Shown here: in pieces, positions 3,032 through 51,166 of the stretch
How the letters are laid out: each line of letters opens with the position of its first letter
How positions within the stretch are numbered: position 1 is the first letter of the stretch
IMG/VR virus record: IMGVR_UViG_3300035698_012408
DNA length: 64,000 bases
From: a virus
Reading direction: 5' to 3' (one strand)
Made by a program: the position numbers and the translations under genes
Notes under the pieces: model-generated
The model's database searches: none
Seen by the model: the letters and a program-made list of their open reading frames with translations, nothing else
Told to the model about the DNA's origin: nothing

Positions 3032-4381
3032 TTATTCCTCCGGGAAACCCAACATCTTGAAAGCGACAGCCTGAATGCCTGGAATCGGCCGCAGACTGTC
3101 AACATCGATCGGGATAGCCAAATCCGCCACGAAGAACTCACGATCTCGCAGCATAAATCTTAACGCTGCCTGCCGATCCACCGTTCTGGAATTTAGCACA
3201 TTGTTCGCGTCTGTTGCGTGCATGCCGGTATAGACAAATTCGTCACTGGCGATGTCGTGCTGGATCGCCAATATATGCCGCGTGGCATACAGCGAATCCA
3301 TCGAACAGTAACGAGCGATCATAGGCATACGTGCAGCCACGAAATCATCCATCGTGACCAACGGCTTGTCCGTGGACCCGAAGGCCCCAACGTCACGATG
3401 CGTCACATGATCGAAGTTATCCACGATCGGGCAATCCGCGATGGCGTACTTCTGATACACCACCTGCACGATCTTGGCACCAACTTTAACGACCACCGGC
3501 TTATGACTGTGATTGACCAGTCGGACAAACCACTCGCCGCGATAGTCGTCATCGATCACGCCAGCCAAGCGATGAACCTGCTTGATCGCACCCAGGCCGC
3601 CGCGGTCCCACAACAAGCCAACATACCCCTCGGGGATAGCCTGCTTGATGCCGGTGCGAAACAAGAACGAGTCACCGGGCTTAATGGTGATCATCCCGTT
3701 CGCCCCTAGCAAGTCCCACCCTGCCAGCGTCTCGTCGTCCCAGTCGCCATCATACAGGTTGGTGCAACCGCCCACGCAGCAGATGTCGTGACCTGCCGCT
3801 CCATCGCTTCCACGCACGGGTACCTGACCGTTCGGGTGCGTCAGCACCGTCGGTACGGTAATGTTGTAAGCTGCACTCATGCTTCCTGGTTGCTGCTCCA
3901 TCGGAGTCACGGCCAGTATCTGCCGCTCCTCGTCAGTCGCATCGTCATAGGCCGCAAGTGCCGCGTCCCACCGTTCCAATACGGCAGGCGGCTGCGTGGC
4001 CCGGTTAGCTTCAGTGACATAGATCCCTGTCTCCAGGTACGCCCACACGATATTCTCGTCCACACCAACACGCAGCATCGCTTGCGCTGTCTGCTGCCGG
4101 CCTGCTGGTGCTGCCGCCGCTTCGGTTGCCGCAGTGACCTCCGAGATCGTGGCACCTGCTACGTAAGGACGCTCCCTCGGACGCAGGTTTGCCGGGCGGT
4201 GGTGCGTCCTGGGCTTGGTCTTGCTCAGACAGCACTTCTTGAACTTCACGCCGCTACCACATGGACATGGGTCATTACGTCCAACACGGCTGTGTCTGCG
4301 AGCCTGTGATCCGATAACCTGCCCTGGCGGCAGTCGGGGGCCGGGGTTACCGGCCATTGCCGCCATCGTCGCCATTCTCAT
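3032..4381 (-). CDS. dut: SEC-C metal-binding motif / dUTPase fusion protein with C-terminal extension
   Basis: N-terminal RNDPCPCGSGVKFKKCC (SEC-C motif). Central dUTPase motifs GAAGHDI, GVIDDDYRGEW, KIVQVVY, RDVGAFGSTDK. About 80 aa of extra C-terminal sequence. Start taken at the ATGA overlap (4381); the longest ORF reaches 4420. Confidence 0.8.
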   Translation of the reverse strand: MRMATMAAMAGNPGPRLPPGQVIGSQARRHSRVGRNDPCPCGSGVKFKKCCLSKTKPRTHHRPANLRPRERPYVAGATISEVTAATEAAAAPAGRQQTAQAMLRVGVDENIVWAYLETGIYVTEANRATQPPAVLERWDAALAAYDDATDEERQILAVTPMEQQPGSMSAAYNITVPTVLTHPNGQVPVRGSDGAAGHDICCVGGCTNLYDGDWDDETLAGWDLLGANGMITIKPGDSFLFRTGIKQAIPEGYVGLLWDRGGLGAIKQVHRLAGVIDDDYRGEWFVRLVNHSHKPVVVKVGAKIVQVVYQKYAIADCPIVDNFDHVTHRDVGAFGSTDKPLVTMDDFVAARMPMIARYCSMDSLYATRHILAIQHDIASDEFVYTGMHATDANNVLNSRTVDRQAALRFMLRDREFFVADLAIPIDVDSLRPIPGIQAVAFKMLGFPEE

Positions 4382-5073
4382 GACGTCGCGGCTGGTTCCT
4401 GGAGGGTTACGGGGGTCCATGATATTTTCTTCTCCAAAAGGGTTTCAGCGAAATGGTGAAGTGAGCCGTACAACTGCGTATCAGACTCCAGCCCTGTGTC
4501 TTCGGGACTAATGGCCGCGAGCTGCATGCCCAACGACCGCCCGAACTCCAAGTTGTCAACCGTGTCAACGTGCCAGCTGTCTTTCATCTGCACGTTATAG
4601 ACCGGTTGGATCTCTTTGTACCACAAGCCCAGCTTCGGTTTCCGGCACTCGCAGCCAGCCTCCGGCTTGTGGAAGCAGACAGCTGACCATCCGGGGAAAG
4701 TCAACGGCCCAGCGACATCTGACCTACCATTATAAAAGTGATGCCAGAAATAACTCTCTCGCACCTTGGCCATCAATTCGTAATAGGCATCCTTCGTGAA
4801 CAAGCCACGACCGACGCCTGACTGGTTCGTGGCAATCACCACGACGTAACCTGCCCGTTGCAGCTCGTAAAGAGCCTCGGGCACACCGGGAAGCCATTCC
4901 CATTTATCGAATGACCCAACCTCGCCTCTGTCAGCGGTGTTGATCACTCCGTCGCGAGCCATCACGATAAGGCGTACGTAGGTATCAGGATCAAGTAGCT
5001 GGTTCCGCGTGCGGATCGAGCTGAATGACCCTTTCCCTCCCGTGGCCTGTTTTCTTCGCTTCTTGTTTCGCAT
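4378..5073 (-). CDS. HAD-IIIA phosphatase, GmhB/HisB-N-like (heptose bisphosphate phosphatase family), nucleophile Asp replaced by Ala
   Basis: VVIATNQSGVGRGLF (motif II region) and the Zn loop C-F-H-x5-C-E-C-RKP match GmhB. Motif I reads VMARDGVIN instead of FLDRDG(T/V)IN; I verified the GCT Ala codon in the DNA. 83-nt overlap with the upstream ORF. Confidence 0.7.
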   Translation of the reverse strand: MRNKKRRKQATGGKGSFSSIRTRNQLLDPDTYVRLIVMARDGVINTADRGEVGSFDKWEWLPGVPEALYELQRAGYVVVIATNQSGVGRGLFTKDAYYELMAKVRESYFWHHFYNGRSDVAGPLTFPGWSAVCFHKPEAGCECRKPKLGLWYKEIQPVYNVQMKDSWHVDTVDNLEFGRSLGMQLAAISPEDTGLESDTQLYGSLHHFAETLLEKKISWTPVTLQEPAATS

Positions 5074-47191: not shown

Positions 47192-47914
47192 TCAATGGCC
47201 ATCCGGGATTTCGCCCTTTTCGATCGCGACGACCTTCAGACCGTAAGACTTGAGCGTCTCCATCAACAGCTCTGCATAAGCGAGAGCCGCCTCGTCCTGC
47301 GTCACCTCGTCGCGGAGGAACTGGGCGAACAGAATACGGGTCCGTTCGCGGACGTTGGTGATCGTGCTCGCGTCTTCGCCCATGACGCCGTCCGTCAGCG
47401 GTGTTGTCACCAGCTGCTTGACCGGTAACTTGTTCTCCCCCGCTGGTTCACTGGCGGAGATCCAGATCGGCACACCGTCATACGGGCTGACGGGGCCGTC
47501 GATCGCGGGATCATTGGAGAGCGTCTCCAGATAAGCCGTATCGAACCCGACGAGCGGGCCGCCGGCCAACCGGCGAATCTCGACGAGCTCCTCACCGCCG
47601 CCCGCCGCAATCGTGGCGGTGCCGACATAGGAGGTACTGGTAACACACGCGTTGGGCGTACGTGGCTCAGCCGCCGGCGACGTGCCATAGCACCCCACCT
47701 TGCGAACACTGGCCTCCCGTGGGATGCGGAAAAGGTCAAAAGACCCCTGACACGGTTCGTCATCGATCCGCTCCGCCACACGGTTACGACAAACCCGCAG
47801 CTCACCGCTCACAACAGCGACACCGTTGAGAAACACGAACACGTCGTGTATCAGCAGATCACCAAACTGGCAGTCATGATGCTGCCCCGCGGGGAAAATA
47901 ATTTTCTGCATCAT
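47192..47914 (-). CDS. hypothetical protein
   Basis: 240 aa, ATGA coupling. Confidence 0.55.
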   Translation of the reverse strand: MMQKIIFPAGQHHDCQFGDLLIHDVFVFLNGVAVVSGELRVCRNRVAERIDDEPCQGSFDLFRIPREASVRKVGCYGTSPAAEPRTPNACVTSTSYVGTATIAAGGGEELVEIRRLAGGPLVGFDTAYLETLSNDPAIDGPVSPYDGVPIWISASEPAGENKLPVKQLVTTPLTDGVMGEDASTITNVRERTRILFAQFLRDEVTQDEAALAYAELLMETLKSYGLKVVAIEKGEIPDGH

Positions 47915-49062
47915 TCGTCTTCATCTCCATAATTGAGATCAATAGCGCGTAGATTCCGGCCACCATGCTGCGGCGGCGGAACAGGAGGACGCTCAATGGT
48001 ATCACCCCAAAGGGCTAAACCGTGAGCGCCGAGTCGCCGCCGAAAGCCGGCAAGCGTGACCGGGCCAATATCTGGACAACCCAAGAAATCCGAAGCCGTG
48101 AACAGCAAGACGTCACGAACAGAACGAGGCGACTGAGTTTTTCCAAGACCAAGCCGCCGCATGGCATCAGCCACGCGGGCCGGTATCTTGTCACCGTAAA
48201 GGTTCGTCCACGGCTGACTCAAGATCGTTGCATCCTCGATACCGAGGCGGTCTTCGGGATCTTCCCCGAGGAACTCAAGCTGCGCGACCTCCAGGTCACT
48301 ATGGGTCACCCGCTGGTGGAAGGCCACGGCCACATCATGCACCGCGTCAATTACCGTCTCGTGTGAGGCACCGGGTTGCAACAACAGCCTGTCGTAACCA
48401 CCCGAGGCGATTACCTCCGTCACCAGCGCCCGGTAGGTTTGCGAATTGTCAATATACTGATCCCGCCACGCGATGGCGTCCAGCATCGCCTGCACCCACG
48501 ACGCCTTATCCGTGACATAGCGGACGGTCCAACCGTGGTCATTCAACCGTTGGTGGTTATAAGCAAATGCCCGCCGCTTCAGCACACCCTCGGCGACAAT
48601 TCGCACGTTAAGCCAACCGCGTCGCGTGTCGCGAGTTTGATAGATATTGGCATGCGACTGCGCAAGCGAGGCATCCGTAACATCCGCACCGTCCGGGACC
48701 GCCGGGAGATCCGTCACGAGCAACCCAAAGCGGGAAGCAACCGCCAACCGCGACTCTTGCCGCCCGGTCGCACGACCTTCCGTAAGACCCTGAAGCAGCC
48801 CAGCATCGAAGCCCGCGGCGTGCCCCTTATCATGACCCTTCTCGACGATCTCCTCGATCGACTGCTCCGCCTGCCACTTCATCTGTCTGACCTCTTCACC
48901 AGCCACCTCGACCAGAGAATAAGCCTGGCGCGCTGCGTCATCTATCGCTCGCGTCCGCAGCTGTTTGGACTTCTTCCAACCGCTCCGATAACCGGCCAAA
49001 TAACCGATCGGATGGATGACCGCCTCGTGGAGCCATCTCACAAATCTTCCAAGCATATTCAC
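47911..49062 (-). CDS. hypothetical protein with C-terminal RpoA-alpha-CTD-like helix-hairpin-helix
   Basis: IPARVADAMRRLGL...VRDVLLFTASDFLGCPDIGPVTLAGFRRRLGAHGLAL is colinear with alpha-CTD (L.vR..N.L....I..igDL......eLl..pN.G.KSl.EI...L...GL.L). First gene after the 434-bp intergenic hub. GGAGGTG SD. Confidence 0.6.
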   Translation of the reverse strand: MNMLGRFVRWLHEAVIHPIGYLAGYRSGWKKSKQLRTRAIDDAARQAYSLVEVAGEEVRQMKWQAEQSIEEIVEKGHDKGHAAGFDAGLLQGLTEGRATGRQESRLAVASRFGLLVTDLPAVPDGADVTDASLAQSHANIYQTRDTRRGWLNVRIVAEGVLKRRAFAYNHQRLNDHGWTVRYVTDKASWVQAMLDAIAWRDQYIDNSQTYRALVTEVIASGGYDRLLLQPGASHETVIDAVHDVAVAFHQRVTHSDLEVAQLEFLGEDPEDRLGIEDATILSQPWTNLYGDKIPARVADAMRRLGLGKTQSPRSVRDVLLFTASDFLGCPDIGPVTLAGFRRRLGAHGLALWGDTIERPPVPPPQHGGRNLRAIDLNYGDEDE

Positions 49063-49122: not shown

Positions 49123-49142
49123 AATACGCTGCTGTGAAACGT
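49123..49142. promoter_or_regulatory. 20-bp palindromic element GCTGTGA-AACGTC-TCACAGC (TGTGA-N6-TCACA core)
   Basis: Seen directly. The core matches the CRP/FNR-family half-site arrangement. Confidence 0.45.
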
Positions 49143-49162
49143 CTCACAGCGTTACGTGTGTG

Positions 49163-49182
49163 TTTACCTCGCTGTGAGACGT
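49163..49182. promoter_or_regulatory. second copy of the 20-bp element, exact reverse complement of 49123..49142
   Basis: GCTGTGAGACGTTTCACAGC, separated from copy 1 by 20 bp. Confidence 0.45.
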
Positions 49183-49496
49183 TTCACAGCAAAAGCAGGT
49201 CAAAGACATCCTCGCCTGCCAAAATGGCAAAAACCACCCTTAATGGGTACGAAAAACACCGAAAATATGTTAAGCTGGGTAGTTCAGAGACATAACTTTT
49301 CGAGATTCTCGTTGTAACTCCTCGCTGTCAAGGGTGTTATGATTTTAGGCTACAGGTTAAAGGGACATGTTCGTTTAACCTATTAACATATCTAAAGATA
49401 TGTAGTCTCTTACGAGGAGGGCCGCCCTGACGGACGTCCGCCTCGAAGAGTGACGGTACGAGGAGAGGAAAACTGAGCCGCGGCGTGTACCCTCAT

Positions 49497-49766
49497 TTAT
49501 AGTGTAGGCACGCCACCCGAGGCCGGTTCGACCTCGTCTTCGTCGTCATCTTCTTCGATGTCGTCGATGTCGTCAACCGAGATCACGGGCGGGTTGAAAT
49601 ACACGTTGACGTACTGCGCGTCGTCCGAGGGTACCACCGGGACATGCTCTGGCAGCAGCGCTTGGAATTGTGCTACCGCCTCTTCGGGCGAATCGGCGGT
49701 TACTTCGCCGCCGAGACCAACCGGTCCTTTACTGCTGTCGCCAAGACTGAAATGATATTTGGGCAT
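49497..49766 (-). CDS. hypothetical small protein with poly-acidic C-terminus; paralogue of 49794..50036
   Basis: Shares V(T)AD(S/T)PE(E/D)A.A...AL and a near-identical 5' leader (CCCAGTGTGAC.GAAAGGAAA) with the upstream gene. Confidence 0.6.
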   Translation of the reverse strand: MPKYHFSLGDSSKGPVGLGGEVTADSPEEAVAQFQALLPEHVPVVPSDDAQYVNVYFNPPVISVDDIDDIEEDDDEDEVEPASGGVPTL

Positions 49767-49793
49767 TTGGATTTCCTTTCTGTCACACTGGGC

Positions 49794-50036: not shown

Positions 50037-50053
50037 GATTTTCCTTTCGGTCA

Positions 50054-50081
50054 CACTGGGAGTTGACTGGGAGTTGACTGG
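50054..50081 (-). repeat. module A copy 1: 11-bp tandem repeat (ACTGGGAGTTG) x ~2.5
   Basis: actgggagttgactgggagttgactggg. The same 28-mer occurs at 51112. Confidence 0.8.
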
Positions 50082-50099
50082 GGGTTCGTTTTGGTAAGA

Positions 50100-50121
50100 A
50101 AAACTGCGTACGGATTTCCAC
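50100..50121 (-). repeat. module B copy 1 (aaactgcgtacggatttccacc)
   Basis: Identical 22-mer at 50926..50947. Confidence 0.8.
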
Positions 50122-50155
50122 CCGTGCTTTGCCCCGATTGGGGTAAGTGGGCCGG

Positions 50156-50434
50156 CTAGGCCTCCAGGTATTCAAGCGCTTGGCGCCGCGCGTCTGCGAG
50201 CTCCTTCCGCTCTCGCAGCAGGCCGCGAAGCATGTTGACTTCCCGGAAGGCATCACGCAGCGAGTGATTCTCTGGCAGCGCCTCGATCTCCGAGGCGAGC
50301 TTATCCAGCTCGTCCATCCGGTACTTGGTACACATCAGGTGGTTACGCAGGGAGTTCCGATCGCCCCAGCCGTCCCCGGTATCCTGGATGCAACACTTTA
50401 CGCGTGTTCGCATTTCTTCGATTTGTGGCGTCAT
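50156..50434 (-). CDS. hypothetical small protein (coiled-coil-like)
   Basis: 92 aa. AGGAGG SD. Confidence 0.6.
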   Translation of the reverse strand: MTPQIEEMRTRVKCCIQDTGDGWGDRNSLRNHLMCTKYRMDELDKLASEIEALPENHSLRDAFREVNMLRGLLRERKELADARRQALEYLEA

Positions 50435-50464
50435 ATGTCGCCTCCTTTCGTTTTGTGATTATAG

Positions 50465-50587
50465 TGGACCCGACGGGGCTCGAACCCGCACGGCAGTTGC
50501 GCCTCATCCGCTGCTAGGGAAAAATAACCCTGCCCGCGGTAGTGGCTCACCTCGCATTACCGGCTCTGCCAGTTAAGCTACGGGCCC
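50465..50587 (-). tRNA. tRNA-like gene, 123 nt, canonical acceptor/D/T arms but ~73-nt central region (non-canonical or insert-containing tRNA; identity unresolved)
   Basis: Minus strand reads GGGCCCG-TA-GCTT-AACTGGCA-GAGC ... GCGGG-TTCGAGC-CCCGT-CGGGTCC-A. It has a 7-bp acceptor stem (one G.U), a D-loop with GG, and a GTTCGAGC T-loop. No CCA is encoded. The best anticodon-arm candidate is CGGTA/TACCG, with a 16-nt loop starting AUGCGAG (which would give U33, anticodon GCG, A37). Confidence 0.5.
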
Positions 50588-50762
50588 GTTTCGCAAGTGC
50601 TTTGCGTATCTTCGTGACGTTCGCGGCTGTAAACAACCGCCGGCCAAACATCTGGTAAGTGGCCCCAGGAATGACCTTTCGCCGAATTAGGTAATTCAGC
50701 TTCCATCGTGGGATACCAAAAATCTCAGCCACTTCGCGGCTCTGGTAGAGTCGTGCCGTCAT
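50547..50762 (-). CDS. small HTH DNA-binding protein (MerR/excisionase-AlpA-like)
   Basis: LYQSREVAEIFGIPRWKLNYLIRRKVIPG...GRRLF pattern. ATG at 50762 with GGAG upstream. The last ~13 codons overlap the 5' part of the tRNA-like gene. Confidence 0.6.
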   Translation of the reverse strand: MTARLYQSREVAEIFGIPRWKLNYLIRRKVIPGATYQMFGRRLFTAANVTKIRKALAKRARSLTGRAGNAR

Positions 50763-50896
50763 CTTTTTCTCCAAAATAAAGGATTTTGTTGCGGCGGTAA
50801 TTGATGTTTACCGCTCAACCTTTAAGGGAAAAGCAACGAAGCTCGCTCTAACGCGTTGGTGTTTAAGGTGTTACGACGTCCCCGGTTTCTTTCAGA

Positions 50897-50919
50897 CAAA
50901 TCGTCCGGTTTTCCCAGGG
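50897..50919 (-). repeat. module C copy 1 (caaatcgtccggttttcccaggg)
   Basis: Identical 23-mer at 51144..51166. Confidence 0.8.
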
Positions 50920-50925
50920 TAGGCG

Positions 50926-50947
50926 AAACTGCGTACGGATTTCCACC
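50926..50947 (-). repeat. module B copy 2
   Basis: Identical to 50100..50121. Confidence 0.8.
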
Positions 50948-51111: not shown

Positions 51112-51143
51112 ACTGGGAGTTGACTGGGAGTTGACTGGGAGTT
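51112..51143 (-). repeat. module A copy 2: 11-bp tandem repeat x ~2.9
   Basis: actggagttg-type units: actgggagttgactgggagttgactgggagtt. Confidence 0.8.
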
Positions 51144-51166
51144 CAAATCGTCCGGTTTTCCCAGGG
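51144..51166 (-). repeat. module C copy 2
   Basis: Identical to 50897..50919. Starts 6 nt beyond the stop of the 51172..51735 gene. Confidence 0.8.

Follow-up and report, generated by a model that had tools for sequence, protein, structure and literature searches.

How is a gene to be read whose two ends are those of a perfect tRNA and whose middle fits no tRNA at all? The question is raised by a 123-nucleotide (nt) tRNA-like gene on the minus strand of a 64,000-nt stretch of viral DNA (IMG/VR record IMGVR_UViG_3300035698_012408), the whole of which is called the window below. The answer that we tentatively favor, at somewhat less than even confidence, is that this element specifies a non-decoding tRNA-like RNA, a mimic or decoy, which may also serve as a processing site for the mRNA of an overlapping helix-turn-helix (HTH) open reading frame (ORF). 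Positions in the element are numbered along the minus strand from nt 1 (window position 50587) to nt 123 (window position 50465), and its layout is GGGCCCG UA GCUU AACUGGCA GAGC (73 nt) GCGGG UUCGAGC CCCGU CGGGUCC A.

Examination of the minus strand confirmed the outer tRNA parts described in an earlier, sequence-only reading of the locus, namely an acceptor stem, U8-A9, a D arm, a T arm and a discriminator A. In the acceptor stem, GGGCCCG (nt 1-7) and CGGGUCC (nt 116-122) form seven pairs, including one G3:U70, and the 5' strand is followed by U8 and A9. All 16 outer base pairs are intact and the set of tRNA-elbow nucleotides (U8, A14, G18, G19, A21, G53, U54, U55, C56, A58 and C61) is complete. 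The CCA end is not encoded, A73 being followed by CUA. Between the D and T arms lie 73 nt (nt 26-98) instead of about 22, as the same reading had noted. A structural finder was set to accept sequences of 66-169 nt that combine U8 and a 7-bp acceptor stem with a GG-bearing D arm and, in the T arm, 5 bp closing a TTYRANN loop; it returned this element as its one match in the window, and no match in 40 shuffled windows. Moreover, four assemblies made from different lake samples (JGI 3300005935, JGI 3300025736, ENA ERZ27315837 and ENA ERZ27315773) agree at every one of 473 nt around the element. The centre is therefore no mis-assembly, and the suspicion that it might be an assembly artefact is not borne out. 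The element is real and tRNA-derived.

The 73 nt do not supply a canonical anticodon arm, that is, a 5-bp stem and a 7-nt loop with U33 and a purine at position 37 (R37), together with a nucleotide 26 and 4 nt or more of variable loop. Nor was any single excision found in the element that would leave such a stem and loop with a nucleotide 26 and a variable loop of 4-5 nt. With the outer arms held fixed, central folds were compared by their minimum free energy or evaluated energies (ViennaRNA). The best is one long irregular hairpin, closed by CGGUA (nt 26-30) with UGCCG (nt 93-97) and capped by UUAUUUUU, at -48.6 kcal/mol, while the two-hairpin folds of the sequence-only reading reach -33.8 and -33.5 kcal/mol. 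Of the latter, the CGGUA/UACCG hairpin is indeed there as a 5-bp stem with a 16-nt loop, followed by 47 nt up to the T stem, but its energy is weaker than that of the single hairpin, and because it pairs C26 no nucleotide 26 remains. The helices GGCAG/CUGCC and AGGG/CCCU, which had been proposed to form one around the other, cannot both form in full: they are mutually exclusive because both need A57 and G58. A Shine-Dalgarno-like GAGGUGA heptamer in the centre ends in the UGA that terminates the HTH ORF. None of the central motifs recurs at another place in the window, and no 3-4-3 bulge-helix-bulge (BHB) motif of the archaeal type (two 3-nt bulges and a 4-bp helix) was seen in the predicted folds, neither of which has statistical support.

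Two marks in the acceptor end point to the ancestry of the element. In our reference set, G3:U70 occurs in 17 of 565 normal-length phage tRNAs, and 12 of the 14 that also have A73 carry alanine anticodons. Since the element has both G3:U70 and A73, it most likely descends from a tRNA-Ala gene. Alanyl-tRNA synthetase (AlaRS) relies on G3:U70 and ignores the anticodon; by this established rule the element would be an AlaRS substrate whatever its centre.

The nearest outside match (L192 1199-1323; L-numbers are labels of fetched loci) has the acceptor stem GGGCCUG/CAGGUCC with G3:U70, A73 and nearly the same T arm. It is a GC-rich long gene with an insert of the type B described below, and after excision of the insert its anticodon loop has 6 nt (AUCCAC). 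A 22-mer running from the T loop of the element to A73 was found in three genome contigs, which represent one odd Patescibacteria tRNA and two fragments. The former (L146 155-232, in the metagenome-assembled genome contig JAUPWK010000003.1) is a cellular tRNA that shares with the element its T arm and its acceptor stem (G3:U70, A73); it has a 4-bp anticodon stem and an 8-nt loop, and ARAGORN names no anticodon for it. Neither this tRNA nor the L192 match explains the centre of the element. The comparison with host tRNA genes that had been suggested as a check for an attachment site led nowhere, as the 22-mer matches gave no host call and no attachment-site logic. The D-arm 19-mer matches exactly at 18 IMG/VR loci (15 ordinary tRNAs and 3 unrelated oddities, none like the element); ordinary phage tRNA genes for Lys, Gln, Thr and Met share it. 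With megablast and blastn, GenBank phages yielded nothing or T-arm matches only, the 3'-end 25-mer has no exact match in IMG/VR, and looking there for this acceptor stem combined with a long insert gave 0 matches. On these searches the element is a singleton without comparative support.

According to the reading that we favor, the element would keep the top half and elbow of a tRNA, with all nucleotides for the tertiary contacts, and would have lost the decoding half, in whose place stands an irregular hairpin of 73 nt. Being unable to decode a codon, it would act as a tRNA mimic. It would be co-transcribed with the surrounding minus-strand genes; RNase P may recognize it as a tRNA and set its 5' end, while the 3' end would be formed by RNase Z or exonucleases together with the CCA-adding enzyme. 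AlaRS could then charge the RNA through G3:U70 and A73, whatever stands in place of the anticodon. Such an RNA might be a decoy or sponge for tRNA-binding proteins, among them host tRNA-targeting nucleases and modification or repair enzymes. As a side effect, or as its purpose, it may provide a processing site that cuts the 3' end off the overlapping HTH mRNA. If the RNA is made and matured, we would be dealing with a phage tRNA mimic that passes for a tRNA with RNase P, in CCA addition and probably with AlaRS, and yet does not decode, as one would expect of a sponge for tRNA-binding enzymes or of a decoy that draws off defence nucleases directed at tRNAs. In favor of this reading count the flawless outer module, the agreement of four assemblies, the missing decoding half, the different behavior of the other long phage tRNA genes, the alanine marks, the lone position of the gene and its place in a repeat-flanked cassette beside the HTH and 92-aa ORFs. 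The sequence-only reading had listed four options without a choice among them, and two of these, a regulatory or decoy RNA and a tRNA mimic, fit what remains when decoding is set aside.

Several observations weigh against this reading. The predicted folds are no better than those of shuffled sequence, with a z-score of -1.3 for the whole element and -0.8 for the centre alone. No homologue of the centre was found in the collections searched (GenBank phages, IMG/VR and JGI metagenomes), and the centre consequently offers no covariation and no evidence of selection. All available assemblies of the phage are clonal; they hold no population signal and are for that reason uninformative on selection. 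Restoration by one excision fails as well in about 40% of the remaining long phage tRNA genes, and a gene that cannot be solved in this way is not thereby proved to escape splicing. Finally, a recent disruption could be enough to explain why the outer arms are still intact.

Table 1. Features of the tRNA-like element and of the surrounding locus, in window coordinates.
Feature	Position	Strand	Evidence or remark
Whole tRNA-like gene, 123 nt	50465-50587	-	Anatomy; structural finder; four identical assemblies
Acceptor stem, 5' strand GGGCCCG, nt 1-7	50581-50587	-	G3 paired with U70
D arm GCUU-AACUGGCA-GAGC, nt 10-25	50563-50578	-	4 bp; A14, G18, G19, A21
Centre, 73 nt, nt 26-98	50490-50562	-	In place of anticodon arm and variable loop; one irregular predicted hairpin
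GAGGUGA, Shine-Dalgarno-like heptamer, nt 35-41	50547-50553	-	7-nt bulge, unpaired in the predicted fold
T arm GCGGG-UUCGAGC-CCCGU, nt 99-115	50473-50489	-	5 bp; G53, U54, U55, C56, A58, C61
Acceptor stem, 3' strand CGGGUCC, nt 116-122, and discriminator A73	50465-50472	-	
Small HTH ORF (HTH_17 / MerR-like)	50547-50774	-	E = 9e-4, below the Pfam cut-off
92-aa orphan ORF	50156-50434	-	Downstream of the element; preceded by AAAGGAGG
30-nt direct repeat A	50918-50947 and 50093-50122	-	
23-nt repeat B	51144-51166 and 50897-50919		Upstream copy of A adjoins the 50897-50919 copy
11-nt x3 array C	51112-51144 and 50055-50087		
21-nt repeat D	49772-49792 and 50040-50060		

The locus itself gives weight to the alternative that we rank second, which we consider unlikely, though a serious contender: the element would be a dead gene or recombination scar, a phage tRNA gene, maybe one already bearing an insert, that was broken by illegitimate recombination during assembly of the cassette and persists as an undecayed relic. 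By its gene content the window looks like part of a bacterial tailed phage. The phage is large (its longest contig measures at least 215 kb), it encodes PolB, a UvsX-like recombinase, an SbcC-like subunit, helicases, a class II ribonucleotide reductase, ThyX and TerL, and nearly all genes of the window lie on the minus strand. Over the window and about 16 kb of flanks (about 80 kb together) no second tRNA-like gene was found; with no other tRNA there, the element does not belong to a codon-supply set. The features around it are listed in Table 1. Read along the minus strand, the repeats follow the order B-C, then A-B, then the block of HTH ORF, tRNA-like element and 92-aa ORF, then A-C-D, and finally D. 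Such shuffled repeats suggest recombination between shared intergenic modules, and the block has the look of a recombination-built accessory cassette, typical of 'moron' loci. Apart from these modules, a perfect 22-nt inverted repeat with an 18-nt spacer lies at window 49130-49191, in a gap of ~430 nt between the ORFs at 47911-49062 and 49497-49766. A CsrA-family protein (PF02599) is also encoded by the phage, about 4 kb past the end of the window (L148 9041-9253).

Several features of the locus would follow naturally from such a break. The 30-nt, 23-nt and 11-nt x3 repeats are shuffled around the block, and the HTH ORF, whose overlap had been pointed out from the sequence, does run into the element, as would be seen if other sequence had taken the place of its original end: its UGA stands at 50549-50547, so that the final 41 nt (13 codons) lie inside. 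Its probable start is the ATG at 50762, with a GGAG ribosome-binding site 7 nt upstream. Neither the HTH ORF nor the 92-aa ORF has a homologue besides itself, and the 187-aa ORF upstream has two relatives at about 50% identity, without synteny and without a tRNA-like element. The chance-level central fold and the centre's lack of homologues in the collections searched count on the same side, as does the failure of the element with every tRNA caller (ARAGORN default, Rfam). Against a scar stands the symmetry of what is left. A single recombination would more often truncate one half, and here both halves are complete, in register and perfectly paired, an argument that is weak if the disruption is recent. 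The related proposal of an integration-site remnant is not supported in its simple attP form, which would have the 3' part of a tRNA gene alone beside an integrase, since both halves are present and paired and no integrase domain was detected by Pfam or PHROGs in the 36 window ORFs scanned, a set that leaves out some of the smaller neighboring ORFs; what stands of it is that the locus is a repeat-flanked mosaic. If the element were a scar only, it would be a minor curiosity of that mosaic.

Standard tools bear on whether the gene might be an ordinary tRNA in disguise. ARAGORN in default mode called no tRNA or tmRNA in the whole window. Rfam gave no match for the element at gathering thresholds, and over 451 nt at E <= 10 no match to the tRNA family RF00005; the only related match over these 451 nt came from the permuted transfer-messenger RNA (tmRNA) model, which aligned locally with the T arm at 11 bits. 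These checks, which the sequence-only reading had proposed, thus yielded no ordinary tRNA, and the ARAGORN intron mode forces an implausible one: a Lys(ttt) gene with the same ends, which is reached only with a 32-nt intron at 32/33, mismatches in the anticodon stem and an extended variable arm, and was rejected as not credible. With a custom tRNA covariance model the T arm alone scores (13.1 bits), but this model is no fair test of the whole gene because it cannot span long inserts. A group I intron in a tRNA has about 200 nt or more with a P3-P9 catalytic core; the earlier remark that the centre is too short for one holds, as there are ~50 nt extra and no Rfam intron family matches.

Could the centre nevertheless be removed from the RNA, as presumably happens to the inserts of many tRNA genes in uncultivated phages, one or two intervening sequences being excised to leave a decoder with, for example, anticodon GCG or GCA? 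We judge this interrupted but functional tRNA doubtful, although the phenomenon invoked by the first proposal of a tRNA carrying insertions is real and common in phages. A pattern scan (D arm, 62-92 nt, T loop) returned at least 120 IMG/VR stretches and 73 metagenome contigs (JGI), and in the fetched loci the structural finder recognized at least 148 distinct tRNA-like genes of 100-160 nt beside the 565 normal-length ones. Among the IMG/VR matches listed, no gene falls between 93 and 108 nt, and 66 of the 114 long genes (58%) become a perfect class I tRNA, defined by 5 stem pairs, U33, R37 and a 4-5-nt variable loop, upon removal of one insert of 38-82 nt; one excision restores 1.7% of shuffled centres. 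Most inserts interrupt the 5' strand of the anticodon stem behind nt 28 or 29, and some stand at 31/32 or in the loop. RF00005 scores every long gene checked at 38-59 bits, skipping the insert.

Two insert families were defined. Type A inserts measure 39-56 nt and share a 27-nt core (7-bp stem, GNNN loop, 7-bp stem, NNA, CAGCAA) in which 6 of 7 pairs covary; they occur in many isoacceptors, as in L032 6304-6877 (four consecutive genes), L046 11133-11246 (minus strand) and many others in L023-L142. They lie mostly behind nt 28 or 29 and not at the canonical 37/38 site, they are too short for group I introns, and their sole match in GenBank phages is an unannotated human-gut contig, MT838485. 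Type B inserts measure 49-70 nt, lie mostly after nt 28, and come in AT-rich and GC-rich versions of the form UAAA, P1, a pyrimidine tract (CUUUUCUCC / UUGCC), P2, (GGUUGCGA / GGGCCGA), P1' and UUAY; examples are L049 7089-7217 (minus strand), L192 814-1323 (three consecutive genes), L186, L197, L209 and L156. To our knowledge, no mechanism is known for the removal of short inserts from phage tRNA genes.

Other unusual tRNA-like genes occur in the fetched loci. A conserved tRNA-like family of 136-137 nt (L035 10726-10861 and at least 15 more contigs, including L036, L056, L060, L077, L078, L098 and L102) has an intact anticodon-like arm, CCGCC-CAUUUAA-GGCGG (or GAGUUAA), with A rather than U at position 33, and a structured insert of ~62 nt in the variable region. 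On the minus strand of L013, at about 651, an acceptor stem, a D arm and an anticodon arm occur apparently with no T arm (ACAGGGG-GUAGCUUAACUGGCAGAGC-GCGUAAAACUAGUCCUUUUAC-CCCUUGU). In L005 268-720, the 5' half of a tRNA and ~400 nt precede a tRNA-Ser gene, possibly a group I intron-containing tRNA in a phage tRNA cluster. Our literature search on short phage tRNA introns yielded a single lead, a remark on 'enigmatic introns' reported from the tRNAs of Lak megaphages (PMC6784885).

The abundance of these genes (at least 148 distinct, 58% of the IMG/VR set restorable), the report on Lak megaphages (PMC6784885) and the length of the element, whose 123 nt are mid-range for the long class, all speak for an interrupted tRNA, and perfect 5-bp stems with 7-nt loops carrying U33 and A37 can indeed be assembled from the centre. 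However, the element fails the single-excision test that restorable genes pass, and every solution is flawed. CGGUA-AUGCGAG-UACCG (anticodon GCG) requires two excisions, one of just 9 nt and one of about 42 nt, and lacks nucleotide 26; a 56-nt excision, read from the predicted fold, gives CGGUA-AUGCAAC-UGCCG (anticodon GCA), again without nucleotide 26 and with a 1-nt variable loop. These anticodons, Arg GCG and Cys GCA, clash with the G3:U70 and A73 marks. The centre fits neither insert family. The type A core model (R2) scores -1.8 bits at 50510-50530, and AGGG-UUAUUUUU-CCCU-AG-CAGCGG bears a merely superficial likeness to the type A motif. The type B architecture, compared as such and without a covariance model, is absent: GGGUUAU is present but has no upstream P1 partner, and an excision ending at GGGUUAU would leave 34 nt before the T stem instead of 20. 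Aligned globally with about 150 other long-gene centres, the centre reached a best score of 43.5, where shuffled queries gave a null mean of 46, so that it is no more similar to them than the null. Rfam tRNA matches the other long genes checked and not the element, and our search found no other long gene with a rod that abuts the D and T stems and leaves no variable loop.

The 36 ORFs scanned contain no RNA ligase, RtcB, kinase-phosphatase pair, splicing endonuclease, Ro/Rsr or SmpB, and the missing ligases and endonuclease count against splicing. A weak match to PNK3P (polynucleotide kinase 3'-phosphatase) was seen far from the element, at window 4378-4962, beside a dCTP deaminase/dUTPase gene. 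The element is an outlier among insert-bearing phage tRNA genes.

The broadest version of the non-decoding reading makes two claims at once, and their conjunction is distinctly unlikely. The element would be an alanine-accepting, non-decoding mimic of a jumbo phage, with a rod carrying the anti-16S-like GAGGUGA bulge, that distracts tRNA-targeting defences or tRNA- or ribosome-binding factors; and it would be an offshoot of an essentially undescribed class with structured inserts of 39-70 nt at nt 28/29, which are neither group I introns nor of the BHB kind. What matters more widely is that well over 100 distinct phage tRNA genes have short structured inserts inside the anticodon stem and are missed by standard annotation, the element showing some of these genes to be past a repairable interruption. 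This class of short inserts at nt 28/29 is probably a more important lead than the element itself.

We strongly doubt that the element is in the first place a cis-acting signal that recruits RNase P or RNase Z in the manner of tRNA punctuation, a cut at nt 1 removing 13 HTH codons and the stop, freeing the 92-aa cistron and making HTH output dependent on processing. The arrangement of the genes is what makes the idea attractive: the HTH ORF extends 41 nt into the element before it stops, the next gene, the 92-aa ORF, has its ATG and a strong ribosome-binding site (AAAGGAGG) 30 nt downstream of the element, and no other tRNA-like gene occurs in about 80 kb. Between the HTH, tRNA-like and 92-aa genes the minus strand showed neither a sigma-70-like promoter nor a terminator, which also fits; the sole minus-strand terminator-like site is inside the HTH ORF and the sole promoter-like site is on the plus strand. 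The sequence TATAAT stands at 50458-50463, directly after the element and ahead of the 92-aa ORF. Nevertheless, neither a 73-nt centre nor alanine marks are needed for a processing signal, and the overlap could be an accident of insertion. Nor does the idea exclude a non-decoding mimic, with which it is compatible.

A miniature tmRNA-like rescue RNA, in which the alanine-accepting domain would be joined to the internal frame GCC ACU ACC GCG GGC AGG GUU AUU UUU CCC UAG, deserves almost no credence: tmRNA does share G3:U70, A73 and an intact T arm with the element and the centre does hold this GCC-initiated 10-codon frame ending in UAG, but 123 nt against about 260-400 nt makes it very unlikely on size alone, the D arm is full and pseudoknots are absent, the putative tag has no hydrophobic, alanine-rich end of the usual kind, ARAGORN and the Rfam tmRNA models give just the 11-bit T-arm match, and an open frame of 10 codons is expected by chance.

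A comparison with known systems places the element among several tRNA-like RNAs. Bacterial tmRNA, of about 260-400 nt, carries alanine marks and a T arm. Its tRNA-like domain resembles the element in the combination of G3:U70 with A73, in the canonical T arm, in a long helix (predicted for the element) standing for the anticodon arm and, on the reading favored here, in being non-decoding; tmRNA is 2-3 times longer and has a degenerate D arm, pseudoknots, a tag frame and a need for SmpB, none of which was detected here. The bacterial Y RNA-like YrlA (RF02553) also joins a tRNA elbow (D and T arms) to a long helix. In YrlA, however, the RNA begins and ends at the distal tip of the long helix and the counterpart of the acceptor is closed, the opposite of the element, which has no Rfam match to this family and no Rsr/Ro gene in the scanned ORFs. 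The 'species 1' and 'species 2' RNAs of phage T4, of about 120-140 nt, have tRNA-like features and no known decoding role, and are matured by host tRNA processing. The element differs from them in standing alone, the T4 RNAs lying inside the tRNA cluster. The insert-bearing phage tRNA genes, meaning the Lak 'enigmatic introns' (PMC6784885) and the types A and B defined here, are set apart by their single excision, their insert families and their Rfam scores of 38-59 bits, none of which holds for the element. What they have in common with it is that they are phage-encoded, have perfect acceptor, D and T arms, reach 100-160 nt through an additional 39-70 nt between the latter two arms, and are missed by default bacterial tRNA finders.

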